From Gammaproteobacteria bacterium (GTDB lineage: Bacteria; Pseudomonadota; Gammaproteobacteria; Eutrophobiales; Eutrophobiaceae): a stretch of 64,000 nucleotides of DNA. Position numbers and translations under genes: made by a program. The stretch is from the NCBI GenBank assembly GCA_965221695.1, contig OZ244905.1, positions 762,355 through 826,354 on the forward strand. The letters run 5' to 3'. Shown piece after piece: positions 7,979 through 48,839 of the stretch (position 1 is the stretch's first letter; each line of letters opens with the position of its first letter). A model generated the notes under the pieces. It was not told where the DNA came from, made no database searches, and saw nothing but the letters and a program-made list of their open reading frames with translations.

Positions 7979-8035
7979 TGATCAGGGCACTGCGCAACGG
8001 TATGTGCCAGATGGAACAGGCCAGGGTATTCTCCA

Positions 8036-8134: not shown

Positions 8135-8162
8135 GGCATAGGTTACACAGCATATAGCTTGT

Positions 8163-17336: not shown

Positions 17337-17363
17337 TACTCTTTCAACTTAATTTTGACATGT

Positions 17364-18233
17364 TCAGCGGGTCGGCATCAGGCCCATGTCGAATTGCAGG
17401 TGGCTGAACGGCACCGGGATGTTGTAGCGGGCAGCCAGGCCGGCATCGTCGGATTGTTCATAATGGCCTATCAGCGAACTCTTGGTGGCGAACACCGCGT
17501 CTGAGTCCAGATACTCGTCGCCTTCCGAAAATACGTGCGTTGTCAGCGGCTCGTAACCGTCCGCAGAGACGATGAAATGGATATGGGCCGGGCGCATGCC
17601 GTGACGGCTGCTGGTTCGCAACAAATCACCAACCGGTCCGTCAGTGGGTATGGAATAGGATAGCGGTTTTTCCGTGACAAAAGCGTAATTGCCTTGCTCA
17701 TCCGTGGTGAAGATGCCGCGCATATTGTTCTCCGGCATGGTTTGATCCTGCACATCATACGTACCGTTCGCTGCGGTTTGCCAGATGTCCAGCTTTGCTC
17801 CCGCTATGGGATTACCGTCCGGGTCAGTCACCCTGCCCTGTACCAGCGCAATATCTCCACCATAATGCCGCTTGATGATGCTGGCGCCGTTTTCGTATTC
17901 CGGCGCGCCGGGCACGTAAAACGGCCCTAACACTGTGGACTCGGTGCCCTGGCCGGACTTGGGGTGGTTGATCGCATCAACCAGCATGGATACGCCCAGC
18001 ACGTCTGACAACAGGATAAATTCCTGGCGCTTATCGTCGCAGATCTGGCCTGTAGCGGTTAGGAACATGATGGCCTTGAACCATTCCTCTTCCGTCAACT
18101 CCACATCCTTGACAAACGCATGGAGGTGTTTGAGCAACGAGGTAATGATCTGCCTGAACCTTGGATCTTCTGTCTTGGAACCGTATTCTTCCAACACGAT
18201 TTCCGTCAGATTATCGATTGTAAAATCACGCAT
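17364..18233 (-). CDS. Intradiol ring-cleavage dioxygenase (hydroxyquinol 1,2-dioxygenase / catechol 1,2-dioxygenase family)
   Basis: 289 aa. Intradiol dioxygenase motifs GPFY, the Tyr/His iron-ligand region, and RPAHIHF. GGGGAGGAAATC RBS. Confidence 0.85.
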   Translation of the reverse strand: MRDFTIDNLTEIVLEEYGSKTEDPRFRQIITSLLKHLHAFVKDVELTEEEWFKAIMFLTATGQICDDKRQEFILLSDVLGVSMLVDAINHPKSGQGTESTVLGPFYVPGAPEYENGASIIKRHYGGDIALVQGRVTDPDGNPIAGAKLDIWQTAANGTYDVQDQTMPENNMRGIFTTDEQGNYAFVTEKPLSYSIPTDGPVGDLLRTSSRHGMRPAHIHFIVSADGYEPLTTHVFSEGDEYLDSDAVFATKSSLIGHYEQSDDAGLAARYNIPVPFSHLQFDMGLMPTR

Positions 18234-18252
18234 GATTTCCTCCCCGTGTAGT

Positions 18253-18309
18253 ATTCACATGGATGGACAGGATATACAGGATGCTGTCATGTCTTGCATC
18301 CTGTATATC
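18253..18309. repeat. Copy 2 of the 23-bp repeat, fused to a perfect 15-bp-arm hairpin (GGATATACAGGATGC-11nt-GCATCCTGTATATCC)
   Basis: Sits between the DUF1329 stop (18320) and the dioxygenase start (18233). No U-tract follows on the transcribed strand. Confidence 0.6.
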
Positions 18310-18319
18310 CATGTTAATC

Positions 18320-19618
18320 TTAACGCCCTTTTGCGCGCAATGCCTGCACGGTGAAATCTGTTTCTTTAAATGGTTTTTCCGGCAATATCGCCTTGAACTG
18401 CAGGGTCGTGCAGTGCAGCGCCTGGATATCGATCATGGAGACCGCATCGATGATCGGCACGCCCATGCCCCGGTTGGAGGGATGATGCCGGTCCGGGTGG
18501 GAGTAGGCGGCGATGGCGACTTTCCACAGGTTGCCAGGCCTGTCGAAGATGTGGCCATAGACCGGTAACATGGTCTGGGCGTCCAGGTAATAGCGACGCT
18601 TGGACAACGGATGTTGTTTCCAGTAAGGCTCGGCCTCCAGGATATACGCCTTGCGCACGTGCCAGGTGACATTCGGAAAGCAGTTACCCTTGCCGTGGAA
18701 GCCGATGAACCTGAAACCATCGAGCTGTTGCCCCACCTCCTCCAGTTGCTGCTCGTCATGATGGAAGAACGGCAGCAGTACCCAGGTGATGCCTTTATAG
18801 GTCCACTTCTGATCCATGATGCGGCCGTTATAACCTAAAAAGTCCTCGATCATAATGTCACTGCCGAGGAATGCGTCCGTGGTCTGTCCAGACGCCAGGC
18901 GGCGCACACGCCGGTGGCCGGACAGGTACAGCCAGACCTGCTCCGGCTTGGTATCGTCTTCCAGTCGTTGTACCAGCAGTTGCGTCCCGCGCAGGTCGGG
19001 CGGCGCCAGTACTCTCAGGTACAGGCCGTGGTAGATTTCGGACGGATTTTTCGGCATCGACGGAATCGGCTCCTGCACATGCCTGTGCATAAACTTCAGC
19101 GAACTGGCATAGAAGGACAACTCTCTCTCGATTTTGTCATGCCGTATATTCCTGTATTGCCAGTAAAATCCATCCACCTCACCGCTGTCGTAAGAATAGG
19201 TATAGCGCAGGTTCCAGGCCAGCTTGTCCCCTGCCCTGGGATCGTCAAGTTGCGGCTCTCTGGGGAACGGCCGTCCCGCGATGTAATTGTGAATAATCCC
19301 CGGCGCATCGCCGAGTTCGGTTTGATCCAGGTAACGCCTCGTTGCGTCGATATACGCAGCATGCGTGGACATGGATATGACCTCGCCCGTGGTGATGGTC
19401 AAAAACTCATCACTGATCAGGTCCACCAGCTTAGGCGCCAGAATAGGGCGGAATGACTCCACATTTTCTTTTGTGATCACCGTGCCCGGCGCGGGGTTAA
19501 GCGAGGCAACATGTGCCAGGTCAAAGGTGAACGACTCCTCGACCACATCTGCCCTGAGCGCGGCGGTACCGGCCAGAAGACCAAGCAACGATACGCAGAT
19601 AAATCGTCGAGAAGTCAT
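18320..19618 (-). CDS. DUF1329-family secreted protein (paralog 1)
   Basis: 432 aa. Signal peptide. Strongly paralogous to 24278-25585 (RRLASGQTTDAFLGSDIMIEDFLGYN vs RRLATGQTTDAFLGTDIMIEDFEGYN; ALHCTTLQFKA vs AKHCTTGQFKG). Confidence 0.8.
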   Translation of the reverse strand: MTSRRFICVSLLGLLAGTAALRADVVEESFTFDLAHVASLNPAPGTVITKENVESFRPILAPKLVDLISDEFLTITTGEVISMSTHAAYIDATRRYLDQTELGDAPGIIHNYIAGRPFPREPQLDDPRAGDKLAWNLRYTYSYDSGEVDGFYWQYRNIRHDKIERELSFYASSLKFMHRHVQEPIPSMPKNPSEIYHGLYLRVLAPPDLRGTQLLVQRLEDDTKPEQVWLYLSGHRRVRRLASGQTTDAFLGSDIMIEDFLGYNGRIMDQKWTYKGITWVLLPFFHHDEQQLEEVGQQLDGFRFIGFHGKGNCFPNVTWHVRKAYILEAEPYWKQHPLSKRRYYLDAQTMLPVYGHIFDRPGNLWKVAIAAYSHPDRHHPSNRGMGVPIIDAVSMIDIQALHCTTLQFKAILPEKPFKETDFTVQALRAKGR

Positions 19619-19688
19619 GTTTGTCCGCTAATCATTCTTCCGCAGATGATACAGGCTGGCGTAAATGAGTTTTACGGTCTTACACCCG

Positions 19689-21239
19689 CTAATCTGTGGC
19701 ATCTTCGGGCTTTTTCATAAACAGGTTGACATCATGGGGATTGACCAGGTCTCCAACCGTCCAGCCGTTGATGTCGTATTCATCCATACACTGCTGGGCA
19801 AAGTCCTTGAGTTCCTGCTCCAGGCCCGAGGCCTGCGCCGATATCAACGCATCAATGCGGATGTTTTCGTTATTGCCCGAGTAATTGCGTTCATACAGTT
19901 CATGGCGGCCACCGAACTCCGTGCCGATGGCATCCCACAACAGGCGCATGGTCTTGACCCGGTCCTCCGCATCGTGGCCGTAAGAGCCCCGCAGGTATTT
20001 ATCCAGGTAGACTTTCAGCTCCGGCACGTTGAAATCCGTCGCATGGGAGTTCAGGTAGATCAGGCCGCTGGCAACCATGTTCTCGATTAATTCCTTGGCG
20101 CGGGGATAGGCCATCGTCATCAGCACCCGATATACCTGCCCGGCATGGCCGTTCGGCACTTTTGCGCCCTTGAAATCGTCAGGCATGCCGCACATCGCAT
20201 CCGACAAGGCCCAGAACAGGTGGCGCAACACGATCATTTCACCTATCGCCACTTGCACGCCGCGATACCCCTTGGAACCGGTGATCTCCAGGGCCTTCAT
20301 GAACAGACCGGTAATGAAATCAAATTTTACCGCAAGCCGGGTGCAGCCGTGAAAGGCAAAGGTATAACCCCAACCGGAAGTACCCAGGAACGTACTGGCC
20401 GCCTCCATGTCCTGGTAGATAAAGACGTCTTCCCAGCGCATCAGCGCATTGTCCAGAACCAGTATCGCATCATTCTCATCCAGGCGGCTGGACAGCGGGT
20501 TGTCGAACGGGCTGCCCATCACCTCCGCCGCGTACGCGTAGGACGGCCGGCAAATCAGCTTCACCCCCGGCGTGTCCATGCTCAACATGCCGGAAATCGC
20601 AAAACGCTTGTCCTTGACGGGGATGGGTCCGTACTGTCCAAGGAAATTGTAGTGTGTCAGGGCCGACCCGGTCGCCACCACCTTGGCCCCGGAAATGATG
20701 ATGCCCTCATCCGTTTCCCCGGTACAGTGCATGTAGACATCCTCGATCTCTTCATGGGGTTTATGCCGGTCCACCGGGGGATTCACCAGGGCATGGTTCA
20801 GGAACGGCACACTTTCCTGGGCGCGCCGGTACCAGTTCAGGGCATTGCCGGCATAGTCACCGAAATACTCCTGGTTGAATCCCAGGGTCAGCATCAGGCT
20901 GGCCTTGTAATCGGGGGTACGGCCCATCCAGCCGTAAGTCATGCGCGCCCACTGGGCGATGGCCTCGCGCTGGGCGATCACATCTTCGCGGCTCCTGGCG
21001 ACCTTGAAGTAAGGATGGGTAAAACCGCCGTTGCCGGTATCGGTATCGGTACGCAGGTGCGGAAATTGCTCTTCATTATGCAGCGCATCGTAGAGGCGCG
21101 CCATCATCCTTGCGGGGTTGCGGAAGGCCGGGTGTTCGGTCACGTCGCGGACCCGCTCCCCGTAAATCCAGATCTCCCGGTCGTCTTTCAGGTTCTCAAG
21201 AAATTCAGCGCCGGTATAGGGGCGAATATCGTTATCCAC
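19689..21239 (-). CDS. 4-hydroxyphenylacetate 3-hydroxylase (HpaB)-family FADH2-dependent aromatic monooxygenase, oxygenase component
   Basis: 516 aa, the family-typical length. Family-level assignment by global resemblance to HpaB / chlorophenol / nitrophenol two-component monooxygenases. Confidence 0.8.
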   Translation of the reverse strand: MDNDIRPYTGAEFLENLKDDREIWIYGERVRDVTEHPAFRNPARMMARLYDALHNEEQFPHLRTDTDTGNGGFTHPYFKVARSREDVIAQREAIAQWARMTYGWMGRTPDYKASLMLTLGFNQEYFGDYAGNALNWYRRAQESVPFLNHALVNPPVDRHKPHEEIEDVYMHCTGETDEGIIISGAKVVATGSALTHYNFLGQYGPIPVKDKRFAISGMLSMDTPGVKLICRPSYAYAAEVMGSPFDNPLSSRLDENDAILVLDNALMRWEDVFIYQDMEAASTFLGTSGWGYTFAFHGCTRLAVKFDFITGLFMKALEITGSKGYRGVQVAIGEMIVLRHLFWALSDAMCGMPDDFKGAKVPNGHAGQVYRVLMTMAYPRAKELIENMVASGLIYLNSHATDFNVPELKVYLDKYLRGSYGHDAEDRVKTMRLLWDAIGTEFGGRHELYERNYSGNNENIRIDALISAQASGLEQELKDFAQQCMDEYDINGWTVGDLVNPHDVNLFMKKPEDATD

Positions 21240-21275
21240 TAAATATGACCTCTGTGATCTTTGTGTCCTCTGTGG

Positions 21276-23513
21276 CTAGCTCACCTTCCGCGCCTTGTAC
21301 TCCTCCGGACTTTCCGCGGTTTTGTATTTTTCCACTGCGATCTTCCGATGCAGGATGACCGGTTGTTCCGCGACCGGCGGTGATGCTATCTCCGCAGGGT
21401 AACAACCCATGGTTTGCTTAGCCGGGTCCATGTTGGTGCGTTTCGAGAACTGGCGCCGGTTGGTACGCTCGGCGGGGATAATATTGCCTTCACTGTCGCT
21501 GTCGAGGTCCCACCACCACTTCTTCACCGGGTTGATCAAACCGTTGCCCACCACGTCATCCAGTTTTGCGATCCAGCTTCGGGTAAACGGCAGGTTCATC
21601 GCCGCCCACAGGAACGGCCTCTCAGCCAACACCCCCTCAATGTTCCAGGGGCAGGTCTTCATACAGCGGCCGCACAGCGCGCCGGCGGCGTTGGTAATCC
21701 GATAACGCGCGCATTTTTCCACGTCCGGCTTCCACATTTCATAGCCGTTGAACATGATTTTGTCGCCGTAGGGGATCGCCTGGCACGGGCACTCCCGCGC
21801 GCACTTGGTGCATTTCTCACAAAAATCCTGCAAGCCGAAATCGATCGGTTTATCCGGCAATAACGGCAAATCAGTCGTGATAATACCGGACTTGAAGCGC
21901 GGACCCACGTAGGGATTCAACACCAGTTCACCGATGCGGCTCAGTTCGCCCAGCCCCGCTTCCAGGATGATAGGAATATGCAGAACATCCTGGTCCATCA
22001 CGCTGTGGCCCCGGGCGGAATACCCCAGGGAGCGGATATGGGCGCCGACAACACCGCCGATGAGCTGGGCGCGCAAGTAGGCGCGCATGCTTTGTGCGCC
22101 ACTGATCCAGTCATCCCCGCTGGCGCCTTCCATGGTCTCGTAGCCCTGGTCCACCAGGATGGCGATTCCGTACTTGTGGTACGGCTTTATCTCCGAACCG
22201 TCGGTATCGTGGGAATACCAGGCATAGTCGGGCAGCTCGCAGATGCCCACCATGTCCGCTCCCATGTAATACAGGGCGGCCTTCACCGCCTCGGCGTTTT
22301 TTTTCGGATCATCGGTACCGGGGGCAATAGCATCCGCTTCCTTGCCATACTGCAGCGGCACCATTGCACCCAGCGGCGGTATCATCGCATGGCCGTATGG
22401 CGACTTGGTGATCATGCGAAAATTGTGCAATTCCTGCTGCGGTTTATCACCGAGATCGCCCAGGGCAGCGCGGATAAACATATCGTGACGTTTGGGAACC
22501 CGCGGCACGTTCGGCCGGTCAATAAACGTAGTGGTGGTGTCCTGCGTTTTCAGTTTTTCCATCGGATAAGGACCCAGGCGGAACGGCCTGTTTTTGAACA
22601 GCTTGCCCTTGTAGCCCGGTCGCGCCCCGCCCATTCCCAGCCACCAGCCCGGGCCATGAGACTTCAGCGATTGCATCATCCCGCGTTGCGCCAGCGGTTT
22701 ATCGGCCGCCAGCTCCATGGTTGTCGAGACCACGGCCATACCGAATTGATCCCCAAGGTAGGGGTTGGTGACCTTGCCACCGCCGTTGGCGCCGGTTACC
22801 TCTCCCAGGCCGCTGCAAAGCAACAGGTAATCGAGATCGAGGTCGCTTGCCGATGCGGTGTGCAATGTCGCCTCATATCCCAGAAAACGGATGTAATTCA
22901 CCATCACCGCCGCCGCTTCGGCCACTCTTAGCGCTGCCCGCTGTGGCTGGGTACCGACCAGCCAGGTTTCGCTCTCAGCATGAGATTCCGGTTCCCTGGT
23001 GTACTCGAACAGTAGGACCAGCGCATAGCCATGACTGAAATCCTTGTTCGCGTCCTCCATGGAACGCTGCCAGGCTTCCTGGCCTTCCCGGACGGTAAAC
23101 TCTGCCATCGCATTGGCCGCCGACCCGGCCTGGTATTCTTTTTCCTGCGCTTGCGCCAGCGACTCATTGATGATGGGTTGTGCCAGTATCGCTTGTTCGG
23201 GTATCGCGCAGGTCGCCGCCATACTGACATCGAGGTTGTAACAACCGGCTTTCAGGTGATTGGCGCGTTCTTGCGGGTCTGACGGAATGGGCGCCTGCTT
23301 GGGCGCCGGGTCGCCCAGGCGCATGCGGTCGAACAGGTCGAGGTATTCACGGAACGCGCCGGCCATGGATTCCGGATTGCCGGGCGTAACCGCTTCCCGC
23401 GTTCGTTGCCCTGCAGCCGGTGAATAGTCGGGTATGGAATTACCGCGTGCCAGCCGTTCCAGCGGGAATGGACCCATGTGCATGGCACGATGTTTATGGG
23501 AAAAGAGTCGCAT
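21276..23513 (-). CDS. Reductive dehalogenase-family protein, long 'catabolic/aerobic' type (NpRdhA-like; cobalamin + two [4Fe-4S])
   Basis: About 745 aa. C-terminal Fe-S motifs FCEKCTKCARECPCQAIP (CxxCxxCxxxCP) and CGRCMKTCPWN (CxxCxxxCP), the arrangement diagnostic of RdhA/QueG-type enzymes. The long N-terminal extension fits the self-contained catabolic RdhA class. No TAT signal or RdhB anchor is present. The start is ambiguous (TTG at 23522, ATG at 23513/23483/23477). Confidence 0.6.
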   Translation of the reverse strand: MRLFSHKHRAMHMGPFPLERLARGNSIPDYSPAAGQRTREAVTPGNPESMAGAFREYLDLFDRMRLGDPAPKQAPIPSDPQERANHLKAGCYNLDVSMAATCAIPEQAILAQPIINESLAQAQEKEYQAGSAANAMAEFTVREGQEAWQRSMEDANKDFSHGYALVLLFEYTREPESHAESETWLVGTQPQRAALRVAEAAAVMVNYIRFLGYEATLHTASASDLDLDYLLLCSGLGEVTGANGGGKVTNPYLGDQFGMAVVSTTMELAADKPLAQRGMMQSLKSHGPGWWLGMGGARPGYKGKLFKNRPFRLGPYPMEKLKTQDTTTTFIDRPNVPRVPKRHDMFIRAALGDLGDKPQQELHNFRMITKSPYGHAMIPPLGAMVPLQYGKEADAIAPGTDDPKKNAEAVKAALYYMGADMVGICELPDYAWYSHDTDGSEIKPYHKYGIAILVDQGYETMEGASGDDWISGAQSMRAYLRAQLIGGVVGAHIRSLGYSARGHSVMDQDVLHIPIILEAGLGELSRIGELVLNPYVGPRFKSGIITTDLPLLPDKPIDFGLQDFCEKCTKCARECPCQAIPYGDKIMFNGYEMWKPDVEKCARYRITNAAGALCGRCMKTCPWNIEGVLAERPFLWAAMNLPFTRSWIAKLDDVVGNGLINPVKKWWWDLDSDSEGNIIPAERTNRRQFSKRTNMDPAKQTMGCYPAEIASPPVAEQPVILHRKIAVEKYKTAESPEEYKARKVS

Positions 23514-23580
23514 TTCAATCAATCGCCAATGTTATGATTCGATGTTCGATAACGGGTTTGGATGCTGCCCCTGTTGATCT

Positions 23581-24174
23581 TTATGTTTTTTGCAGTCCGA
23601 GTTCGCGCAAGTAGTCATGCACGAAATCAATCCGGTCATTGCCCCAGAATATCTGGTCGCCTTGCACAAATGTCGGCACGCCGATCACACCGGCTTCCTG
23701 CGCCTCCTGCCAGTTGTCCTCCAGGACCTTCTGCCTGGCCGGATCATCCAGTGACGCACTGAACTCATCGGGGTCTAGGCCACACTCACGGGCGATGTCC
23801 ACCAGGGTATCAAGCTGTCCAATATCCTTACCCAGCGCCCATTCGGTATCCATCACCCGGTTGATATAGTCTCGCAGGCAGCCTTTTTCTTCGGCCAATA
23901 GAGAACCAACACCCGCCGGAGTCGGATCAGTGGTAATGGGTGGAGGGTTGCAAGGGATATTCATCCGTTTTGCCCAGCGGGCAACATCCTGGCGGGTAAG
24001 CGGGATTTTGACCTTTGCCCGGTCCGGCGCCGAGCGGCCGTTCCATCCTGCCAGCGGCCGCCAAACCAGGTTGACATGGTAGTCATCCACCAGGCTGAAC
24101 ATGGTCTTGCTGGCGAGATAACAATAAGGACTTCGAAAATTGAAGAAAAACTTTAAATCAACAGACTCCCTCAC
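23581..24174 (-). CDS. DsbA-like thioredoxin-fold protein, 2-hydroxychromene-2-carboxylate (HCCA) isomerase / kappa-GST-like family
   Basis: 197 aa. N-terminal hallmark DLKFFFNFRSPYCYLA (FxFxSPxxYL). C-terminal VPTF...G...FWG. Confidence 0.7.
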   Translation of the reverse strand: MRESVDLKFFFNFRSPYCYLASKTMFSLVDDYHVNLVWRPLAGWNGRSAPDRAKVKIPLTRQDVARWAKRMNIPCNPPPITTDPTPAGVGSLLAEEKGCLRDYINRVMDTEWALGKDIGQLDTLVDIARECGLDPDEFSASLDDPARQKVLEDNWQEAQEAGVIGVPTFVQGDQIFWGNDRIDFVHDYLRELGLQKT

Positions 24175-24277
24175 CTGTGCTGCTCCTTACGTCTGCCAAA
24201 GAGGGCACGAATGTCGCAGAGCAATCAAGTCAAACTCTGTGAATTCTGTACCCTCTGTGGCAATAAAATAAGTGATG

Positions 24278-25585
24278 TTACCTGCCGCTCTTGCGCAGGT
24301 TTTGCACCGTGAACATCTGCGGCGGGTTCAACGTGGGATCCAACTGGCCCTTGAACTGGCCGGTGGTGCAGTGTTTTGCCTGCACGTCATACATCATGAA
24401 GCAATTATCGATGGCGACGCCGGAACCCTTGTTACCGGGCAAGTGCCGGTCCGGATAGGCCTGGCAGATGGAAAACGACTTCCACAGGTCGCCCTTGCGG
24501 TCGAACTCGGCCTGGCGCGGAATGGTGTATGTCTGCGCATCGATATACATTACGCGCCGGCTCAACGGGTGATTCGGATCCTTCGGCGTCCCGTGCAGCT
24601 CATAGACCTTGCGCAGTTCCCAGGTGGTCTTAGGATAACAACCATCCACGTCAACGAACTGGTAACCATCGGGTTCGGGCGGCATATCGGTGGCCAGTTC
24701 CAGCTCGTCATGGTTATGGAACGGCAGAAAACCGTTCTTTGTGCCGATATACTCCCAGTTGTAGTCGGATACGCGGTTGTTGTAGCCTTCAAAGTCCTCG
24801 ATCATGATATCCGTGCCCAGGAATGCATCCGTCGTCTGCCCCGTGGCCAGACGCCGTACTCGCCGCTGGAAACCCAGGTACAGCCAGGCGTCATCCCGCT
24901 TCAGGTCGTTCTTGTAACGATGAATGAGAAGCTGGGTATTGGCGATATCAAACGGCTCCAGCGCGCGCACATAAATTGAGCGGAACAATTGCGCGGGATT
25001 GTCTTCAAACTCCGGAACCGGTTCCTGGTTCACCCGATGTTTCCAATTCAGGAAATGGAAGCTCCACTTGATAGTGCGTTCGAGCTTTCCTGATTTGGCG
25101 TTCCTGAACTTCCAGTAGAACGGCGAGATTGCGGCGTTATCGCCCCAGTTATAACCGTACTGGTAATTCCAGGCGACTTTCAGTCCAGCCTGGGGGTCAT
25201 TCACATCCGGTTCAGCAGGAAATGCCCGCCCGGCAACAAAATTATCCACCAGCCCATCCGCATTCAAGGATGGTTGATTGTTGACCGCTTCCATGGTTGC
25301 CTTGATATAGTTCGGGTGTAACTCCAATGATTCCGTTACCTTAGTCTGCAATGCCGTCTCACCGTTTTTGATATGGTCGTACAACGCCGGATCGAGAATC
25401 TCCTTGAACTGCTCCACGTTACCCTGGTCGATGACCATCCCGGGCGTGTATCCTGGAAACTCCGGTGTCCAGTTTTCATAAGGATAAAACGATTTCCTTA
25501 CATCTTCTTCGGTAAAATCGGCTGAGACCGCCAGGCTCAGGGCAACCAGCGGCATAACAGCGAGATACTTGACATACTTGAACAT
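24278..25585 (-). CDS. DUF1329-family secreted protein (paralog 2)
   Basis: 435 aa. Signal peptide MFKYVKYLAVMPLVALSLAVSA. Paralog of 18320-19618. Confidence 0.8.
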   Translation of the reverse strand: MFKYVKYLAVMPLVALSLAVSADFTEEDVRKSFYPYENWTPEFPGYTPGMVIDQGNVEQFKEILDPALYDHIKNGETALQTKVTESLELHPNYIKATMEAVNNQPSLNADGLVDNFVAGRAFPAEPDVNDPQAGLKVAWNYQYGYNWGDNAAISPFYWKFRNAKSGKLERTIKWSFHFLNWKHRVNQEPVPEFEDNPAQLFRSIYVRALEPFDIANTQLLIHRYKNDLKRDDAWLYLGFQRRVRRLATGQTTDAFLGTDIMIEDFEGYNNRVSDYNWEYIGTKNGFLPFHNHDELELATDMPPEPDGYQFVDVDGCYPKTTWELRKVYELHGTPKDPNHPLSRRVMYIDAQTYTIPRQAEFDRKGDLWKSFSICQAYPDRHLPGNKGSGVAIDNCFMMYDVQAKHCTTGQFKGQLDPTLNPPQMFTVQNLRKSGR

Positions 25586-25615
25586 AATAATTAAGCCTCC
25601 TTCCTGAAAATAGTG

Positions 25616-27769
25616 TTAGAAGCGATAGCGAATCAGAACTTGAAACTCGTCCTCGTGCTGCGCCATGCCGATGGGACCGGAACGGAATCGGCCCAGTGGT
25701 TCAAAACCCCTGCGGTCTCCGCAACTGGAACCCACAACATAGGGTTCGGTACAACCGGGGCCATTAGTAAACGGCGGAAATGCATTGGAAGTACGACCGT
25801 CATCCGCGACTCGGGCGCCGGTGCCCAACTTGATATTGGCGCCGAAGATCAAACGCAGGTTATCGTTGATCAGGTAGTCCACACCCGGGGCCACGACGGC
25901 CGCCTTGGCGCGAAAATCATACGCGGTGATAATTCGCGGCAGTACCCGGTCGTTCCTGAAGAAACCCTGGAACAGGAAAGTGCCGATATAACCATTCTTC
26001 CAGTCCTGGAAACCGATCTGCTGCCCGCTGATGGGATGACTGATTGATTTGTGATCAAGCAGGTGCTGGCCGAAAATCTGGGCCGACAGCAGGAAGGTCC
26101 TGTTCGGGTTCAACCAGCGGATATAGGTGGGGCGGTCCCAACCGATGACCCAGCGAATCACGTCTGATTCGGAATTCAGGTCAGATGCCGAGGTATCGGC
26201 AAACTCCTCGCCACTGGTATGGGCCAGTTCCACCCGGAACGCCGACTTCAGTGGATCAATGTAAAAGTCCGCCGAGCCGCCTATCAGGGTAACCCTTGGG
26301 AAGTGGATATCAAATGCCGGCACATATTGCCTGACCCGTTCAAGACCGGGCGTATCGGTAGGATCAAGCGGGCTGAAGCCCAACGGGCATCCGGCAAACG
26401 CCGGGCTCCACAGTCCCGGCGCAGGTGTAGTCGGTGGGCAACCCTGGGGTGGAATCAAGGTTCCCAGGAACGGGTTGACGCCTTCGATCTCGGCGCGTAA
26501 AGCCGGGAGTTGCGAATAAAATGTCATCGCGTTAAGCGAGAAACCCACGCCCCTGAACACACCTTCCAAACGCACCCCGCCCTGGTCGAAGTCCCAGCCG
26601 GGCAAGTGGATATCACGGATACCGATAACATGACGGGGGAAATCCGTTGCCAGGTTCCCATCCGGGGCAAGATGACCGGCAAAGTTATTGACGGTACACC
26701 CATTGTCCCAACAATTCTTCAGCGCCCGGAACAGGTCACCGGCAAGCAGGATATTGTAAGGCTGCCCGCCTTGACCCAGGTTGTTCGGACGGAATTTCTC
26801 GAAGTTCCAGATCACCTGGAAGTTCAGGTCATCAAAGGCGCCTACAGCGCCGGCACGGTACTCCGCAGAAAAGATCCCCAGCGGGATACGGCTGTCCTCG
26901 AACTCCTCGTAAATACTCTGGATAGAAAAATCGATCGGGTTGACCTGGTCCAGTACCCGAAACAGGTCGGTGCGGCCCCAGACCACCTGCTGGCGGCCGA
27001 TGCGGAAGTTGATCTCATCGCCGTTGTTGACCGGCATGGTCGCGTCAACGTAGATCTCCCGCAACCAACCATGGTCATCAGTGAATTCTGGAAAGCGCAG
27101 GTCGTCCAGGGTCGCATCCATATAACCGGGGATACAACCGCGGGGATCGACATCACAGGGCCGGGTCGGGGTAAACAGTTCCAACCCGCCGCCGTACTCA
27201 CCGTTATTGTTGCTGGCTGCAAGTTCGCCACCCACCCTTTTCAGTCCTTCATTGGGATTGACTGTGGTATCGAAACCAAAGCCTCCGCCCCCGGGCAGGG
27301 CCGGCACACCCGCAGAGACCGGTGAGAAGCCCCAGGGCGCATCCACGGTGGGATGATTTGTGAGTTCAGAAACATTGACCATTTGCAACTCGGCATCAGG
27401 ACCGAATCCGACCGGAAGATAGACCCCTGAACCGGAACTGGTGGTCGTGACCGGTCCTCCCGAACGCTTGCCAAAGGTATCGTCGTTCAGGTCGTAGACG
27501 CCATCATAGGTGGCTCGCAGGGTTCCATGAAAGGACAACTCGGAGAACAATCCCGTGGGCTTGAATATTTTCGACCACTCAATCTGACCGCGTATGCGTT
27601 CCTTGGTAATGCCGTAACTGTCACGGTGGTGGTAGGTGTTGTCGACAAAGCCGTGGATTGTCAGGGTGCCGTCACTCGAGTTCCACGCAGATACCGACAG
27701 TGGCGCGATGGCAACAGCGCCTGCGATCGCACTCGATAACAGGGTGAGAGAAAACCTGCGGATATTCAT
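25616..27769 (-). CDS. DUF1302-family outer-membrane beta-barrel protein
   Basis: 717 aa. Signal peptide ...AIAPLSVSA. C-terminal aromatic ...LIRYRF typical of OM barrels. Classical partner of DUF1329. Confidence 0.8.
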   Translation of the reverse strand: MNIRRFSLTLLSSAIAGAVAIAPLSVSAWNSSDGTLTIHGFVDNTYHHRDSYGITKERIRGQIEWSKIFKPTGLFSELSFHGTLRATYDGVYDLNDDTFGKRSGGPVTTTSSGSGVYLPVGFGPDAELQMVNVSELTNHPTVDAPWGFSPVSAGVPALPGGGGFGFDTTVNPNEGLKRVGGELAASNNNGEYGGGLELFTPTRPCDVDPRGCIPGYMDATLDDLRFPEFTDDHGWLREIYVDATMPVNNGDEINFRIGRQQVVWGRTDLFRVLDQVNPIDFSIQSIYEEFEDSRIPLGIFSAEYRAGAVGAFDDLNFQVIWNFEKFRPNNLGQGGQPYNILLAGDLFRALKNCWDNGCTVNNFAGHLAPDGNLATDFPRHVIGIRDIHLPGWDFDQGGVRLEGVFRGVGFSLNAMTFYSQLPALRAEIEGVNPFLGTLIPPQGCPPTTPAPGLWSPAFAGCPLGFSPLDPTDTPGLERVRQYVPAFDIHFPRVTLIGGSADFYIDPLKSAFRVELAHTSGEEFADTSASDLNSESDVIRWVIGWDRPTYIRWLNPNRTFLLSAQIFGQHLLDHKSISHPISGQQIGFQDWKNGYIGTFLFQGFFRNDRVLPRIITAYDFRAKAAVVAPGVDYLINDNLRLIFGANIKLGTGARVADDGRTSNAFPPFTNGPGCTEPYVVGSSCGDRRGFEPLGRFRSGPIGMAQHEDEFQVLIRYRF

Positions 27770-27813
27770 CGTTTATCCCCCTTCGCTAAGTGAACTTGAT
27801 TAGTGTAGTTATG

Positions 27814-27840
27814 AAAATATCGATATTTTTTCATTATAGC
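27814..27840. promoter_or_regulatory. Putative operator/promoter element (site A): AAAATATCGATATTTT perfect palindrome followed by TTTTTTC...TTATAGC, 45-70 bp upstream of the DUF1302 start
   Basis: 16-bp perfect palindrome. The ATATCGATATTTTTTC(N)TTATAGC string is shared with site B (38200-38245). The core is shared with site C (4463-4474). Confidence 0.5.
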
Positions 27841-27933
27841 CTCTTTATTCGCCATTACCATGAATATTTTTTGGGCGGGGACAGGACGTGCCTGTCTCCA
27901 CCTATTGCATAATGATTCCCCAATTCCTCGCTG

Positions 27934-30333
27934 TCAGTCCATGTCAATCTCATCGATCATCGAACCAGTGCCTTTTTCCCAGCGCTCCTCTCCAGCCTTC
28001 ATGATGAATTTCGGCTTGAAAATGTTCACCCAGGCTGGCACCAGGAACATCGCAGACGCCATGTTCATGATCAGCATGATGATAAGCAGGCGGGCCGCGT
28101 CCGCCTGGAAACGCAATTCGGAAATGAACACCCACATGATAATTCCGCCCACCAGGGTCGTAGCAGTCAGCGCAATGGCAACGCCGGTGGTGCTGACCGC
28201 GCGCCGGATCGCGTCCTGCACATTGTCGGCTACATGCATCTCCTCCTTGATGCGGTCCATCATGTAAATCGCGTAATCCACCCCAAGACCGATACCCACG
28301 GCTATCATCGGCACGGTATTGACGTTCAGCCCCATGTTCAGCAATCCCATGCAGGCATAGGTGAGCGTGGTGGCGAAGGTCATGGATACCAGCATCATGA
28401 AGCCGGAGTGGAACGAACCGTAAAACCAGAGAGTAAACGCCAGGATCAGCACCAATACCGCGGGCACGACGATGACATTGGTCTCAAAAGCCTCTTCGTT
28501 GATGGCCGCGGTCACCCCGACCGGGCCGCCTGCCAGGTCGATGTGCAGCCCCTCAATCCGGCTGCCGGTTGTATCTATCCATTCCTTGGCCATGTGGATC
28601 GCGCGCCGTATGGTCTCGCCTGTATGGTCCTTGTAATAGAACACCATGTTGGCCAGCCGGTCATCGGTATCGATATATTCCAGCAATGCGCCCTGGGTCG
28701 GCGCCGACATCATAAACATGAACAGCAGCCCGCCGATATTCTGGTCGATGGACGGGATCACCGCCCAACGCGGGTCATTGTTGCGAGTCATCTGGTTCAC
28801 CTGGGTCAGCAGGTTGTTGACCCCCTTCACACCGCCCAGTTTCGGGTCCAACAGCATGTGGTTCTGGAAATCCGCCAACGCTTTCATGATCTCCGGTTTT
28901 TTCAAACCACCTATTTCATCGGCGCGGGCAATGATGAACAGTTCCTCCGCTCCCGGAAAACGTTCATTGATCGCAGTGGATGAAACATTGAAATCATGGT
29001 CGTGATAGAGCAACGGTGAGCCCGGTTCCGGTTCCCCGATCTGCACCCAGGAACTGAAATACGTCGCGCAAAGAGCAATGATGAGACAGGTAATGAGCAC
29101 CGCTTTCGAACGTCCCCTGGTACCGACAACCTGGGCAAACTTGGGAAAGATCGCCCGCGCCAGGGTATGCTTGACGGCCACATCTTTGGGCCTTGGCAGT
29201 TCCGCCAGCAGCATCGGGATCACGATCAGCACGGTGACCACCATGCAGACCGCCCAGAACGACGCGTAAATGGCCATCTTGTCATTAATCGGCACCGAAC
29301 CCAAGCCGATGAGGTACAGCGCGGAGGCATCCGCAACGATGGCCAGCGCGCCGGGCCTGAACAACGCGTTGAAGGTGTTTCGGGCCGCTGGCACCTTCTC
29401 GCCGGTGCGCGACAACTCAAGGAAATAGCGTTCCATTTTCTGGATGCCGTGGGACATGGCGCGCGCAGAGATCAGAAACGGCACCACCAGCATCAGCGGA
29501 TCCAGGTTATAACCGAACACCCCCATGAAACCCACACCCCAGATACTGGTCAGGATCATGCCCAGCAACGGCAGCAGGATACCGTAAAGCCGGCGCGAGT
29601 AGAAAACCAGGATGCCCAGTACGATCAATATGGTATAGAAGAAGATGAGTAGGATATCGCCACTGTAGGAATCCACCCAACCCACCAGCACCGGGTGGCC
29701 GGTGGCGTGGATTTTCACTCCCGGCGCGGCCTCTTCCGCCCGGATCGCCTGGATTTCCTCAAACACCTTGCCGTAATCGAGCTGGCCTTCATTTAAGGTG
29801 CCCTTGATCAAGGCCGCTTTCATGTCCGGCGAAACCAGCAATCCGTAGACATTGGTACTGGCCAGCACGTCCCGTTGAATCTGCGCCAGTTGTTCTTCCG
29901 TGTATTCTTCGTGGTGCGGGTCGTAATAGTTCTGCGAACGGATGGTGCCATCCGGAGTCAGGAAGATCTTCCTGGTGTTGCGGTGGGTCAGGCTGGTCAC
30001 CAGGTTGTGGTTGATATTGGACACGCTGTCCAGCTTTTGGGTAATGCGGTGAATCCGGTCGAGGGCATCATTCGTGAAGATCGTCCCCTCCTCCACTTCC
30101 ATCGCCATGACGATGATATTGGCCCCGCCGAACGTATCGCGGATACTGTTATGCAGTTGTATGTACGGGTGTTCCTGGGGCAACAGGTCGGCAAAGTCCG
30201 AGAGCATGCGCACGGTGGGAATATTCCAGGCAAACATCGCGGTAATCAGGAATATCAGCGCCAGCACGAATTTCCGGTTGTTGAACAGGAAATTACCGAA
30301 TACCGGAAAAATCTGGCTGGTATCTAGTTTCAT
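27934..30333 (-). CDS. RND-superfamily exporter (MMPL/COG1033-like, two 6-TM bundles)
   Basis: 799 aa. Two hydrophobic multi-TM blocks separated by large soluble loops. Overlaps the upstream Ycf48-like gene by 4 nt. Confidence 0.8.
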   Translation of the reverse strand: MKLDTSQIFPVFGNFLFNNRKFVLALIFLITAMFAWNIPTVRMLSDFADLLPQEHPYIQLHNSIRDTFGGANIIVMAMEVEEGTIFTNDALDRIHRITQKLDSVSNINHNLVTSLTHRNTRKIFLTPDGTIRSQNYYDPHHEEYTEEQLAQIQRDVLASTNVYGLLVSPDMKAALIKGTLNEGQLDYGKVFEEIQAIRAEEAAPGVKIHATGHPVLVGWVDSYSGDILLIFFYTILIVLGILVFYSRRLYGILLPLLGMILTSIWGVGFMGVFGYNLDPLMLVVPFLISARAMSHGIQKMERYFLELSRTGEKVPAARNTFNALFRPGALAIVADASALYLIGLGSVPINDKMAIYASFWAVCMVVTVLIVIPMLLAELPRPKDVAVKHTLARAIFPKFAQVVGTRGRSKAVLITCLIIALCATYFSSWVQIGEPEPGSPLLYHDHDFNVSSTAINERFPGAEELFIIARADEIGGLKKPEIMKALADFQNHMLLDPKLGGVKGVNNLLTQVNQMTRNNDPRWAVIPSIDQNIGGLLFMFMMSAPTQGALLEYIDTDDRLANMVFYYKDHTGETIRRAIHMAKEWIDTTGSRIEGLHIDLAGGPVGVTAAINEEAFETNVIVVPAVLVLILAFTLWFYGSFHSGFMMLVSMTFATTLTYACMGLLNMGLNVNTVPMIAVGIGLGVDYAIYMMDRIKEEMHVADNVQDAIRRAVSTTGVAIALTATTLVGGIIMWVFISELRFQADAARLLIIMLIMNMASAMFLVPAWVNIFKPKFIMKAGEERWEKGTGSMIDEIDMD

Positions 30334-31319
30334 GATTTATCTCCCACCAGTTCCTGAGCTGAAAAAATTTCCAATACGCCTGCGGGTCCGCTCACGATCA
30401 AGCGCTGATCGGGTAACGGCATGATCCCGCGCAGGTACTGGCGGAACGGCCGGCCATGATCGAACGGCAACCACCTGTCTCCATCCAAACGGAAAATGCT
30501 GCCTTCACCACCGGTGACAAACAACTGGCCGTTGGCTTTTGCCAGCGTATACAATGTCACCAGGCTGCCGGTAGCTTGTGTCTCCCAGGTCTCTCCGCCA
30601 TCGTCCGTAGCCAGGACCACGCCGCCCAGGCCGGCGATCCAGCCCCGGTTCGGATCCTCAAAATACATGCTTTGCGGATAAAACTCGTCCGGCATCGGCG
30701 GCATGAATTCCCAGTTGGAGCCGGCATCGGCGGTTTTCAGCAAAGTGCCGAACTCGCCGGCGATATAGATGTTCTGATCATCGAAAAACTGGATGTCCGT
30801 AAAAATAATATCCTCATCCAGGGAGGTTACGTCCCAACTCACGCCGCCATCCCGGCTGACCGAGATGGTGGAAAAGCTGCCTACCACCCACAGGTTGCCG
30901 GCAGGGTCACACTGTATGGCCTGGGGCGCCTCCTCGGTCGCGAGTTGGCTCCTGTTCCAGCTCTCACCCTGGTCGTTCGACAGCCATACTTCACCTTCAA
31001 AGGCCAGCGCGGCAAACAGGCCACCGGCGCAACTGGTAATGTCCAGGAACGCCGGCCAGGAAGGGATTTGATAGCGTTGCCAGCTCGCGCCATCGTCTTG
31101 TGACGACAGGATGACACCACCGGAGCCGACTGCGACGATATTTTGCTGAAATGCACTGACGGCCTGGAAATTGTCGGTCCTGCGAATCGGGTTTTGCAGG
31201 GCTTTCTCGACCTCATCCAGCACCAACGGCGACTCGCAAGCGGATGCCAACACGCAGGCCACAGCCAACAGCCAGCGGCTTGCAAACCGGGCGCTCTCTT
31301 TGATGTAATTATTATTCAT
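30330..31319 (-). CDS. Ycf48-like BNR/Asp-box repeat lipoprotein (photosystem II stability/assembly-factor homolog)
   Basis: 329 aa. Lipobox LASAC. Four SxDxGxSW-type Asp-box repeats (SQDDGASW, SNDQGESW, SRDGGVSW, TDDGGETW, TADAGSNW). Confidence 0.8.
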   Translation of the reverse strand: MNNNYIKESARFASRWLLAVACVLASACESPLVLDEVEKALQNPIRRTDNFQAVSAFQQNIVAVGSGGVILSSQDDGASWQRYQIPSWPAFLDITSCAGGLFAALAFEGEVWLSNDQGESWNRSQLATEEAPQAIQCDPAGNLWVVGSFSTISVSRDGGVSWDVTSLDEDIIFTDIQFFDDQNIYIAGEFGTLLKTADAGSNWEFMPPMPDEFYPQSMYFEDPNRGWIAGLGGVVLATDDGGETWETQATGSLVTLYTLAKANGQLFVTGGEGSIFRLDGDRWLPFDHGRPFRQYLRGIMPLPDQRLIVSGPAGVLEIFSAQELVGDKS

Positions 31320-31401
31320 GTTTCCCCTAAATTAACCCTCATAAACAGCGCGCTGCGCATCCTGGCCGCATGTAATTGTTGACATAATCCAAATCACGCC
31401 C

Positions 31402-31510
31402 CCGTACCACTCGTGCGAAACACCACCTTACCACTCCCGCAAAACACCAACTTACCACTCCCGCGAAAGCGGGAGTCCAGTCAATTACTGTGTCGCCCGC
31501 AGGGCGACCC
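31402..31510. repeat. REP-like compound hairpin repeat, copy 3
   Basis: CCACTCGTGCGAAACACC, CCACTCCCGCAAAACACC, CCACTCCCGCGAAAGCGGGAGTCCAGTCAATTACTGTGTCGCCCGCAGGGCGACC. The ~50-nt core is nearly identical to 8041-8095. Confidence 0.8.
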
Positions 31511-31523
31511 GTTATTATAGTTT

Positions 31524-32312
31524 TCAAACCATCCGAAAACTGACCTTCCCCAAGTCCTGGAAGCGCACATTGATCGTATCGCCTTTGTCCAGAGCAACCG
31601 CCGCCGTGATTCCCCCGGTCATTATGAACGTCCCTGCGGGTATGGTCTCACCGCGCGCAGCCAGCATGTTCGCCAGCATCGCCACGCTCAGGGCAGGATG
31701 CCCCAACACTGCGGCGCCGGCGCCGGTCTCAACCACTTCTCCGTTTTTCTCCATCACCACCCCAAGGGCCGGCAAGTCCAGGGAGTCCGCGCCACGCAAG
31801 ACACTGCCGACGACAAAGCCTGCGGCGGAAGTATTATCGGCAATGACGCTCTTCAGGTCAAAACGAAAATTTTCATAGCGGGAATCGATGATCTCCAACG
31901 CCGCCGTAACAAAATCAACGGCTTGCAATACCTGGCCGATATGGCATCCGGGACCGGCCAGTTCCGCTTTTGTCACGACAGCCACCTCCGCTTCCACGCG
32001 CGGGTGGATAAACGCTGAGCAGTCAATCTCAGCGCCATCGGCGTAACCGCCGGTAGCAGGCAGGAAACCGTATACCGGATCGGACACCCCCATCTGCCGC
32101 ATCTTGGCCTGGGAGGTCAGGCCCATTTTCAGGCCGGCGATGCGGATGCCGCGTTCTTCTTTGCGCCGGCGGATCTCGTACTGGATGGCGTAGGCGTCCT
32201 CCCAGTCCAGTTCCGGGTAGTCATCGGTAATCTTCGTTACCGCTTGCCGGTTGAGTTCGGCATTCTCCAGCCGCTCGGCCAGTTGCCTGATGGTTTTTTG
32301 ATCCAGCGTCAT
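31524..32312 (-). CDS. 4-oxalocrotonate decarboxylase (XylI/DmpH-like)
   Basis: 262 aa. Collinear high similarity to XylI ([10 protein letters not shown]...GLKMGLTS...[21 protein letters not shown]...[27 protein letters not shown]). Position at the end of the meta operon. Confidence 0.85.
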
Positions 32313-33349
32313 TGCACTGCCTTTATTTCACGCCGCGCCCGCGCCATGTTCAGCGCAACGTCTTCGATCATGTCTTCCTGGCCGCCGATGGTCTTCATCT
32401 TCCCCAGCTCGACCAGGATGTCGCCCGAAGGCAGCTTGTATTTTTCACCGACGCGCTTCGCGTGCAGCAGGAACGAAGAGTAGACACCGGCATAACCCAT
32501 GATCAACGAGTCACGGTCGACCCGGATCAACTGGTCCATTATCGGCACCACCACATCTTCCGCAACGTTCATCAATTTGAATACATCCACGCCGGTTTTG
32601 ACGCCCATGCGGTCCAGCACCGCGTTGAACACCTCAAGCGGCGTGTTGCCGGCGCCGGCGCCCAGCCCCGCGGCGGAACCGTCAATCCGGTCGGCGCCCG
32701 CTTCGACTGCGGCCAGTGAATTGGCAATGCCCATTGCCAGGTTATGGTGCCCGTGAAAGCCAATCTCGGTATCGGCTTGCAGGCCGGCGCGCAATGCCCC
32801 GATGCGGGCCGTGACATCATCCGGCAGCATATAGCCGGCAGAATCGGTGCAGTAAATGCAGTTGGCGCCATAGGATTCCATCAATTTGCCCTGTTCAAGC
32901 AACTGTTCCGGTTCCACCATATGCGCCATCATCAGGAAACCGACGGTATCCAGGCCCAGTTTTCGAGCTGAACTGATATGTTGTTCCGAGACATCCGCCT
33001 CGGTGCAATGGGTCGCGACGCGGATGGTATGGACTCCACAATCCCGCGCCATGTTCAAATGATCCACGGTGCCGATACCCGGCAACAGCAAGGCCGACAC
33101 ATTTGCCTGCTTCATACGCGGCGTGACCGCTTGCAGGTACTCTTCATCGGAGCTGGCAGGAAAGCCGTAATTGATGGAGGCGCCACCCAGGCCATCGCCA
33201 TGGGTCACTTCGATAAGGTGGACGCCTGCGTCATCCAGCGCGGAAGCGACATCGATCATCTGCTCAGTCGTGATCTGGTGGCGCTTGGCATGCATCCCGT
33301 CGCGCAGGCACATATCATGCAGTTTTACTGTTTTTCCGTTTAGATTCAT
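32309..33349 (-). CDS. 4-hydroxy-2-oxovalerate aldolase (DmpG/MhpE/BphI-like)
   Basis: 346 aa. DRE-TIM N-terminus [13 protein letters not shown]...[13 protein letters not shown]. 4-nt overlap with the decarboxylase gene. Confidence 0.9.
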
Positions 33350-33392
33350 GGTGTTGTTGTATCAGTTTCGACTTGATCGCTGTTTTGTGGGG

Positions 33393-34301: not shown

Positions 34302-34327
34302 ATTCAGTTTACCCCTGTCCTCTATCC

Positions 34328-35119: not shown

Positions 35120-35148
35120 TATTTCTGTCACAGTGTCGGATTGAATTC

Positions 35149-36639: not shown

Positions 36640-36669
36640 TTTTTTCTGACTCCTATTACACCCCAATAT

Positions 36670-36838: not shown

Positions 36839-36840
36839 TA

Positions 36841-48836: not shown

Positions 48837-48839
48837 CCT

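Follow-up and report, generated by a model that had tools for sequence, protein, structure and literature searches.

The window analysed here is a stretch of 64 000 nucleotides (contig OZ244905.1, positions 762 355 to 826 354, assembly GCA_965221695.1) from a gammaproteobacterial genome. It carries fourteen co-oriented genes on the minus strand, from 36666 to 17364 (~19 kb), with intergenic gaps of -16 to 204 bp. This string includes four adjoining genes for envelope proteins (the quartet), a gene for a catabolic reductive dehalogenase (RdhA) and a second, separate DUF1329 gene. The quartet belongs to the known, mechanistically unsolved AmeABCD-type module. Its conserved partnership with a dehalogenase, together with an extra carrier of an orphan type, is apparently undescribed. 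An earlier note on this DNA, made from the letters alone, had reported the quartet, the second DUF1329 paralogue and the genes interleaved with them, and every open reading frame (ORF) and family assignment in it holds.

In order of transcription, the quartet consists of a Ycf48-like BNR beta-propeller protein, probably a lipoprotein (30330-31319, 329 aa; PSII_BNR/Ycf48, E 4.8e-20), an HAE3/MMPL-type RND inner-membrane transporter (27934-30333, 799 aa; MMPL, E 3.4e-23), a DUF1302 outer-membrane beta-barrel (25616-27769, 717 aa; DUF1302, E 3.6e-31) and a LolA-like periplasmic DUF1329 protein, copy a (24278-25585, 435 aa; DUF1329, E 4.6e-67, plus LolA_like). They are the equivalents of AmeC, AmeD, AmeA and AmeB, respectively, and their order (C-D-A-B) is a circular permutation of ameABCD. 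The stop codon of the BNR gene overlaps the start of the RND gene by 4 bases, and 30 bp separate the DUF1302 gene from DUF1329 copy a.

Upstream of the quartet, on the same strand, there are five genes of the dmp-type lower meta-cleavage pathway, assigned with Pfam: an aldehyde dehydrogenase (ALDH; 35149-36666), an FAA-hydrolase-family hydratase (34328-35164), an acetaldehyde dehydrogenase (33393-34301), a 4-hydroxy-2-oxovalerate aldolase (32309-33349) and a second FAA-hydrolase-family protein, of the decarboxylase type (31524-32312). These genes lie -16 to 43 bp apart and are followed by 204 bp before the BNR gene. Downstream of the quartet are the genes for a cytoplasmic DSBA-fold protein of the HCCA-isomerase/kappa-GST type (23581-24174; Pfam DSBA, E 3.6e-33), an NpRdhA-type catabolic, non-respiratory RdhA (21276-23522 as called, minus strand, with a probable start at 23513), the oxygenase component of an HpaB-type flavin-dependent phenol hydroxylase (19689-21239; Pfam HpaB_N and HpaB), DUF1329 copy b, LolA-like, periplasmic and of the 'orphan' subfamily (18320-19618, 432 aa; DUF1329, E 2.9e-57, plus LolA_like), and an intradiol ring-cleavage dioxygenase of the hydroxyquinol 1,2-dioxygenase type (17364-18233; Pfam Dioxygenase_N and Dioxygenase_C). 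The dioxygenase gene begins 86 bp downstream of copy b. The genes from BNR to the dioxygenase all share the minus strand and are spaced by -4 to 204 bp. Nowhere else in the 64-kb window was another copy of a quartet gene found.

The minus strand from 17000 to 36990 was scanned for terminator-like sites by consensus. The best-formed intergenic site, by consensus match only, is a hairpin at 36723-36703, 5' of the ALDH gene, with a 9-pair stem and a T-rich tail; a weaker 6-pair site lies in the same gap (36835-36820). Downstream of 36703 the scan found no intergenic site, all other matches being intragenic. The hairpin at 36703-36723 is likely to mark the boundary of a long transcription unit and, given its position before the first gene, transcription of all ~19 kb as one unit is possible, as far as a consensus scan can indicate. 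The promoter scan gave a result at chance level (12 sites, against 11.7 expected).

The envelope proteins have the features expected of their families. Signal peptides and the lipobox were read by eye from the sequences, without a predictor. The BNR protein has an N-terminus ending in LLAVACVLASAC|ES, a lipobox-like sequence (LASAC motif); its PSII_BNR score is 72 bits against a cut-off of 27, with additional Pfam matches to BNR and Sortilin-Vps10. The hydropathy profile of the RND protein is that of about 12 membrane segments with two large loops (residues 45-220 and 434-612), with the motif GVDYAIY in the TM10-region segment and Arg291 in the TM4-region segment. Its best NCBIfam match is HAE3 (TIGR00921; 127.8 bits, cut-off 351.9), and it matches MmpL3 and HpnN distantly only. 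The DUF1302 protein has a cleavable signal peptide and is modelled as a large barrel of the 18-strand class (pLDDT 78.7, pTM 0.83). A 2026 analysis reports that no DUF1302 structure has been solved, and our barrel model agrees with that analysis (PMC13499233). Both DUF1329 proteins have signal peptides, that of copy a ending in LAVSA|DF and that of copy b also being cleavable. The AlphaFold2 model of copy b (pLDDT 88.4, pTM 0.87) has a C-terminal LolA-like half-barrel, with roughly 225 aligned residues, preceded by a long N-terminal region. LolA3 is described as having a hydrophobic groove and no pairing with LolB (PMC13103446).

The RdhA protein matches 4RAS and 6ZXU, structures of the oxygen-tolerant NpRdhA of Nitratireductor pacificus, over residues 2-107 and 160-745 (E about 1e-176) and the NCBIfam RDH model with 209 bits, above the cut-off of 160. 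Its iron-sulfur motifs, CEKCTKCARECP and CGRCMKTCP, align with those of NpRdhA. Residues Y479, K541 and R605 (745-aa numbering) match the active-site residues of NpRdhA and are invariant in 14 homologues. In NpRdhA these are Tyr426, Lys488 and Arg552, in the numbering reported by Payne et al. 2015. The ORF call starts at a TTG codon (23522); the length of a 100%-identical database protein, 745 aa, makes the ATG three codons downstream, at 23513, the more likely start. The N-terminus (MRLFSHKHRAMHMGPF...) lacks a twin-arginine motif, and no gene for a small membrane protein (RdhB anchor) adjoins rdhA. The protein is a full-length NpRdhA homologue, N-terminal extension included. Like NpRdhA, it lacks a reductase domain and, like bhbA, its gene stands among genes for aerobic ring-hydroxylating and ring-cleaving enzymes. 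Homology predicts cobalamin-dependent dehalogenation of ortho-halogenated phenols. The related catabolic enzyme JtRdhA debrominates 3,5-dibromo-4-hydroxybenzoate and 3-bromo-4-hydroxyphenylacetate fastest (PMC10463259), and ortho-brominated or iodinated phenolics are the likely substrates here.

The NpRdhA cluster is reported with a ferredoxin reductase and two ferredoxins (PMC10463259); none of these is present at the window locus. A 2-oxoacid:ferredoxin oxidoreductase, which accompanies RdhA in relatives, was sought in the window and not found. In two other gammaproteobacterial genomes, Pseudomaricurvus alkylphenolicus (locus L089, 6643-9985) and another (L090, 6964-9941), a two-subunit 2-oxoacid:ferredoxin oxidoreductase is encoded directly upstream of the RdhA homologue, with a small ferredoxin alongside it in L089 (L-numbers are the labels of compared loci in other genomes or records). 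This oxidoreductase is a candidate for the physiological electron donor of the reductase-less catabolic RdhAs, whose natural partner has been reported as unresolved.

The two ring-attacking enzymes can be placed more narrowly. The HpaB-type protein is close to PDB 4OO2 (E 8e-188) and to E. coli HpaB (E 4e-176); it scores 671 bits with NCBIfam HpaB-2 (TIGR02310), below the equivalog cut-off of 885. No member of a flavin-reductase family is among the annotated ORFs of the window, in which no search aimed at flavin reductases was made. The dioxygenase, which the earlier note had labelled simply as intradiol, does belong to that family and can be refined to the hydroxyquinol type: by its similarity scores it is clearly nearer to hydroxyquinol (PnpC 3N9T, E 8e-85; 6-chlorohydroxyquinol dioxygenase 8R2X, E 1e-76; 1TMX, E 6e-70) than to catechol 1,2-dioxygenases (about 1e-44), and it scores under the catechol and chlorocatechol equivalog cut-offs.

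The label 'DsbA-like' given earlier to the DSBA-fold protein did not stand. Its best solved relatives are the 2-hydroxychromene-2-carboxylate isomerases 2IMD and 3FZ5. It lacks a signal peptide, and in place of CxxC its N-terminus has the motif FNFRSPYCYLA, with a single Cys in SPYCY. By these features the protein is to be classed as cytoplasmic and kappa-GST/HCCA-isomerase-like, not as DsbA. A role as a periplasmic DsbA oxidoreductase serving the transporter was considered and ruled out, the protein having neither signal peptide nor CxxC. The earlier note had gone further and cast RdhA, HpaB, the DsbA-like protein and the dioxygenase as the enzymes that process the cargo of an envelope machine. 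None of the four has an export signal, so they act in the cytoplasm, and cargo processing at the machine itself is not supported.

The two DUF1329 copies are 42% identical over their full length. In a neighbour-joining tree the DUF1329 proteins split into two clades. Clade a contains every copy that adjoins a DUF1302 gene (the window, L001, L006, L009-L015, L017 and L089). Clade b contains copy b of the window, its orthologues and copies in other contexts, for example beside MFS and GST genes (L004) or alone among housekeeping genes (a Kordiimonas metagenome-assembled genome). On the evidence of the tree, copy b can be assigned to an 'orphan' subfamily that joined the cluster together with the dehalogenase module. 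A recent tandem duplication of copy a was also considered as its origin and was ruled out by the 42% identity and the separate, old clades.

Conservation of the arrangement was followed in two ways. Neighbourhoods of DUF1329 copy b were inspected at 81%, 75% and 67% copy-b identity; in addition, one genome per species was scanned with an RdhA alignment and the loci were scored by tblastn. The neighbourhoods at all three identities retain the order RND-DUF1302-DUF1329a-DsbA-fold-RdhA-(HpaB)-DUF1329b. The longer string BNR-RND-DUF1302-DUF1329a-DsbA-fold-RdhA-HpaB-DUF1329b-dioxygenase is collinear in L001, L009, L010, L011 and L013/L002; six other assemblies have this full string, and their copy b is at least 75% identical to that of the window. 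L012 and L014/L003 (67% copy b) lack HpaB and the dioxygenase and retain the rest, and L015 lacks copy b. The DsbA-fold gene between DUF1329-a and RdhA is retained in relatives, and the C-D-A-B order of the quartet is the same in all relatives found.

The linkage survives rearrangement. In L017 the order is BNR-RND-DUF1302-DUF1329-GST-GST-RdhA (quartet identity 40-58%), two GST genes replacing the DsbA-fold gene. L019 carries a multicomponent phenol hydroxylase, then RdhA, then a catechol 2,3-dioxygenase-ALDH-decarboxylase-BNR-RND series. In L006 the RdhA, GST and DsbA-fold genes diverge from DUF1329-b, with DUF1329-a and DUF1302 close by, and L018 has, at a distance of 3-4 kb from RdhA, an XylR/DmpR-type activator and DUF1329-b. 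The cultured P. alkylphenolicus (L089) has RND-DUF1302-DUF1329a (62%)-DsbA-fold (59%)-GST-TetR-oxoacid:ferredoxin oxidoreductase-ferredoxin-RdhA (62%)-GST (60%). The quartet is therefore a real co-oriented module whose linkage to RdhA, the DsbA-fold gene and DUF1329-b is conserved in relatives, and the chance juxtaposition allowed for in the earlier note, in which the arrangement would be absent from all relatives, is refuted.

At least one quartet family is present in the flanks of 11 of the 21 gammaproteobacterial RdhA loci (RdhA identity >=55%) and at none of the 58 loci with RdhA identity <=50% (Alphaproteobacteria, Actinomycetota, Entotheonella and others). The link between the quartet and RdhA is real and lineage-restricted. 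A search of the literature for a connection of these RdhA genes with sponge symbionts gave nothing usable; the names of several metagenome-assembled genomes hint at sponges as their source, which is a guess. In L018, a 430-aa protein without a Pfam match (3998-5290, minus strand) is encoded between the XylR/DmpR-type activator and the DUF1329-b homologue; it could be an unrecognized partner of the orphan-type DUF1329 proteins.

The primary association of the quartet is with phenol catabolism. Among 72 556 plasmids, the best match of DUF1329-a (57% identity) is on the conjugative IncP plasmid NZ_CP142043.1 of Pseudomonas veronii T1, a strain from aniline-contaminated groundwater. This plasmid carries Ycf48-RND-DUF1302-DUF1329 in the order of the window, directly after a sigma-54 regulator (dmpR) that diverges from dmpKLMNOP, a catechol 2,3-dioxygenase gene and the dmp lower pathway. 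The quartet proteins of window and plasmid are 38-57% identical, and the five window genes upstream of the quartet are 55-72% identical to genes of the plasmid dmp region. Unlike the window, the plasmid has no RdhA, HpaB, kappa-GST-like or second DUF1329 gene with its quartet. The plasmid RND gene (L093+L092, 272.6-275.1 kb of the record) matches the window pump in two pieces, residues 15-251 and 321-780, and does not figure in the plasmid's gene table; a disrupted gene or a pseudogene is possible. DUF1302 and DUF1329 genes also lie inside the phenol-hydroxylase cluster of Zoogloea oleivorans (PMC7012976). In Thauera, pipAB is induced by p-cresol, and phnK of Delftia is in a phenanthrene island (bioRxiv 10.1101/072470).

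The DUF1302/DUF1329 pair has been called functionally undefined, also in the earlier note. This is no longer accurate, given the deletion phenotypes of AmeABCD (PMC6394551), the cofit genes (bioRxiv 10.1101/072470) and several proposals of aromatic transport. Deletion of AmeABCD, the tetrapartite system of Castellaniella defragrans 65Phen, lowers monoterpene tolerance and increases accumulation of Nile Red, and the mutant is partly rescued by a co-substrate (PMC6394551). Price et al. reported cofitness of the four genes in Shewanella, Kangiella and Pseudomonas (bioRxiv 10.1101/072470). P. putida needs all four to grow on Tween 20, and its investigators thought of a system for substrate transport; in AlphaFold co-folding, DUF1302 is predicted to form a complex with DUF1329, and DUF1329 another one with BNR and RND (PMC10866462; ipTM 0.84 in PMC13499233). 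A DUF1329 mutant of Delftia is impaired in growth on phenanthrene, and an equivalent cluster has some of the highest expression levels in an anaerobic benzene degrader.

AmeABCD has the same four families as the window (DUF1302, DUF1329 LolA-like, COG4447/Ycf48-like and HAE3 RND, the window pump being a candidate HAE3 member), contiguous and co-oriented in a catabolic island for a hydrophobic, toxic substrate. The two differ in gene order (A-B-C-D in AmeABCD, C-D-A-B in the window) and in their neighbours, which are monoterpene genes in one case and phenol/bromophenol genes in the other; the window adds a second DUF1329 of another subfamily. The cofit group, Sama_1588-1591 of Shewanella amazonensis and PP_0765/0766 with PP_2018/2019 of P. 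putida, treated by Price et al., Thompson et al. and the Foldy paper, also has these four families. It shows a natural split into barrel plus carrier and propeller plus pump, pairs that in the window are joined by the 30-bp gap and the 4-base overlap, respectively, and DUF1329 paralogues have been noted in P. stutzeri as well. This group is chromosomal and apparently general-purpose, with pleiotropic or fatty-ester phenotypes, whereas the window module is embedded in an aromatic-catabolic operon. The HAE1 solvent pumps of the TtgGHI/SrpABC type follow the same logic, efflux being co-encoded with degradation of a toxic substrate. They are tripartite, with a membrane-fusion protein and a TolC-like duct; the window has instead a LolA-like carrier, a beta-propeller and a barrel of the 18-strand class. 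None of the papers retrieved on NpRdhA clusters and on HAE3 + LolA-like systems describes an RdhA linked to the DUF1302/DUF1329/RND module.

The reading that we favour, tentatively and as a possibility somewhat short of probable, is that the quartet is a proton-driven, four-component envelope transporter of the AmeABCD type, in a subtype that accompanies phenol-catabolic genes, directed outward, acting on membrane-active (bromo)phenols and co-expressed with the pathway that breaks them down. In the cytoplasm, the NpRdhA-type dehalogenase would remove the halogen from ortho-brominated phenolics, the HpaB-type hydroxylase would then add a hydroxyl group and the hydroxyquinol-type dioxygenase would open the ring; the GST-fold proteins of the region would probably handle quinone or hydroquinone intermediates. 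In the envelope, the proton-driven HAE3 RND pump and the translationally coupled propeller lipoprotein would take membrane-partitioned phenolics from the outer face of the inner membrane and hand them to a LolA-like DUF1329 carrier, which would dock on the DUF1302 barrel, and the compound would leave the cell. The quartet might thus serve as a safety valve that prevents uncoupling, membrane-active (bromo)phenols and their products from reaching toxic levels during their consumption in the cytoplasm. Copy a, always adjoining the barrel, would be the cognate carrier; copy b may have been recruited with the dehalogenase module as a second carrier or a binding protein, and it probably differs in the cargo that it prefers. 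Envelope transit of hydrophobic or halogenated aromatics had already been suggested in the earlier note. It fits the barrel and LolA-like folds and the recurrent phenol-gene neighbours; it is also an existing hypothesis, and RdhA is not generally linked to the module.

Characterized RND transporters, including the HAE3/MMPL members HpnN and MmpL3, move their substrates outward. We favour the outward direction because of this, because the Ame phenotypes are those of toxicity relief and because identical phenotypes of the four genes imply a single energy-dependent process. Several points weigh against this reading. Transport in either direction would be compatible with the sequence. The HAE3 score of the RND protein is well under the curated cut-off, and among the folds nearest to the DUF1302 model there are both the exporter AlgE and Occ/OprD-family uptake channels. 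The growth phenotypes of P. putida on Tween 20 and of Delftia on phenanthrene also fit substrate acquisition. The likeness to AmeABCD is one of protein families, and the substrates are assigned through homology to NpRdhA and JtRdhA. The dehalogenase can do without the quartet, which is missing from about half of the gammaproteobacterial RdhA loci. Finally, the phenotypes in Shewanella and P. stutzeri are pleiotropic, and Price et al. suggested a cell-wall component as the compound exported (bioRxiv 10.1101/072470).

The phenotypes and folds just cited could also be explained by an uptake route, a serious alternative although we regard it as rather doubtful. The DUF1302 barrel would admit poorly soluble or hydrophobic phenolics through the outer membrane, DUF1329 carriers of two specificities would ferry them to the inner membrane, RND and BNR would be accessory or recycling components, and the route would feed RdhA, HpaB and the dioxygenase. 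The best structural neighbours of the barrel include substrate-specific uptake channels such as OccAB4/BenP and the OprD family, outer-membrane channels are common in aromatic-catabolic operons, and the operon partners of the module all consume substrate. The P. putida requirement on Tween 20, with the transport system suggested from it, the poor growth of the Delftia mutant on phenanthrene and the high expression in the benzene degrader point the same way. However, we know of no importer in the RND superfamily, and small phenols pass membranes unaided. The identical phenotypes of RND/BNR and DUF1302/DUF1329 mutants argue for a single energy-dependent process, and the ameABCD mutant gains dye and is partly rescued by co-substrate, which indicates toxicity, not failed uptake (PMC6394551).

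There is a further proposal, which we hold to be unlikely as it stands: DUF1329 proteins might be interchangeable, cargo-specific periplasmic carriers working on a shared barrel and pump, copy b being a dedicated organobromine/phenol binder that was recruited along with the dehalogenase. Such a system would amount to a programmable, Lol-like shuttle for small hydrophobic xenobiotics, perhaps acting inward as a new uptake route. If true, this would explain the orphan DUF1329 genes scattered through catabolic islands.

It seems improbable that the quartet serves general envelope remodelling, exporting an endogenous lipid or outer-membrane component or promoting vesicles ('nanopods') and so altering permeability without handling aromatics. 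MMPL and LolA-like pairs also occur in aryl-polyene lipid clusters, and the relatives HpnN and MmpL3 export lipids. The pleiotropic phenotypes and the 'cell wall component' proposal of Price et al. (bioRxiv 10.1101/072470) are consistent with such a role, as is the occurrence of DUF1302 and DUF1329 proteins in Delftia nanopods. However, a housekeeping lipid exporter is not expected as extra copies in monoterpene, phenanthrene, p-cresol, phenol, benzene and bromophenol islands, nor on a conjugative catabolic plasmid. It is highly improbable that the genes have no functional link and are neighbours through shared ancestry in one lineage, copy b being a leftover of rearrangement: most collinear loci do come from one group of related uncultured gammaproteobacteria and the quartet is missing at 10 of 21 gammaproteobacterial and 58 of 58 more distant RdhA loci, but co-localization survives in at least eight architectures, among proteins whose identity falls as low as about 60% (RdhA) and 36-62% (quartet), and by our estimate the chance of a quartet copy within 10 kb of a given gene is ~1-2% per genome (few copies per 3-5 Mb).

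The DUF1302/DUF1329/BNR/RND module is widespread in proteobacteria, with no solved barrel structure and three competing functional proposals. The locus and its relatives give it a defined, testable chemistry, that of ortho-halogenated phenols, and both a cultured carrier of the genes, P. alkylphenolicus (GCA_011683955.1), and a natural two-carrier variant are available among the relatives. The locus also gives a reductive dehalogenase of an oxygen-tolerant type its place in what would be a complete aerobic pathway of uncultured marine gammaproteobacteria, which bears on the turnover of natural organobromines.

Upstream of the gene string, a separate unit on the minus strand codes for a 262-aa GST (37266-38054) and an HbpS-like protein (36841-37269) whose gene overlaps that of the GST; both were assigned with Pfam. 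GSTs 60-62% identical to that of the window are encoded within a few kb of RdhA in L089, L006, L017 and L022, and this co-occurrence suggests a thiol-dependent pathway step. A divergent gene on the plus strand (38334-39014; Pfam GntR and FCD) codes for a GntR/FCD-family protein, a candidate regulator of the region, and a GntR/FCD gene is also within the L019 cluster.

Downstream of the cluster, at 4603-9716 and 11415-12662, there are genes for a VanA-like Rieske oxygenase, a sulfatase, a GMC oxidoreductase and an MFS transporter. The synteny reaches beyond the cluster, since the same downstream families recur in L001 (the VanA-like gene also in L002). The region is flanked by genes for TonB-dependent receptors on the plus strand, one convergent with the dioxygenase gene (14994-17336) and one after the GntR regulator (39035-41329); the first is not conserved beside the cluster in L001 or L002.

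Farther upstream, on the minus strand at 41344-45130, are genes with no apparent relation to the catabolic cluster: a VIT/VWA-domain protein (768 aa), a small unidentified ORF (43647-44108) and, about 440 bp upstream of this pair, an ECF-type sigma factor gene (44546-45130). The stretch 46001-50000 has a low GC content (0.39-0.47, against about 0.56 elsewhere) and contains a 749-aa ORF without a Pfam match (46145-48394). A type I restriction-modification system lies directly downstream of this ORF (hsdM 49563-51164, hsdS 51157-52449, hsdR 54208-57525), with a Peptidase_M78/DUF4411 gene pair inserted between hsdS and hsdR. The low-GC stretch with its restriction-modification system is probably a mobile defence island.

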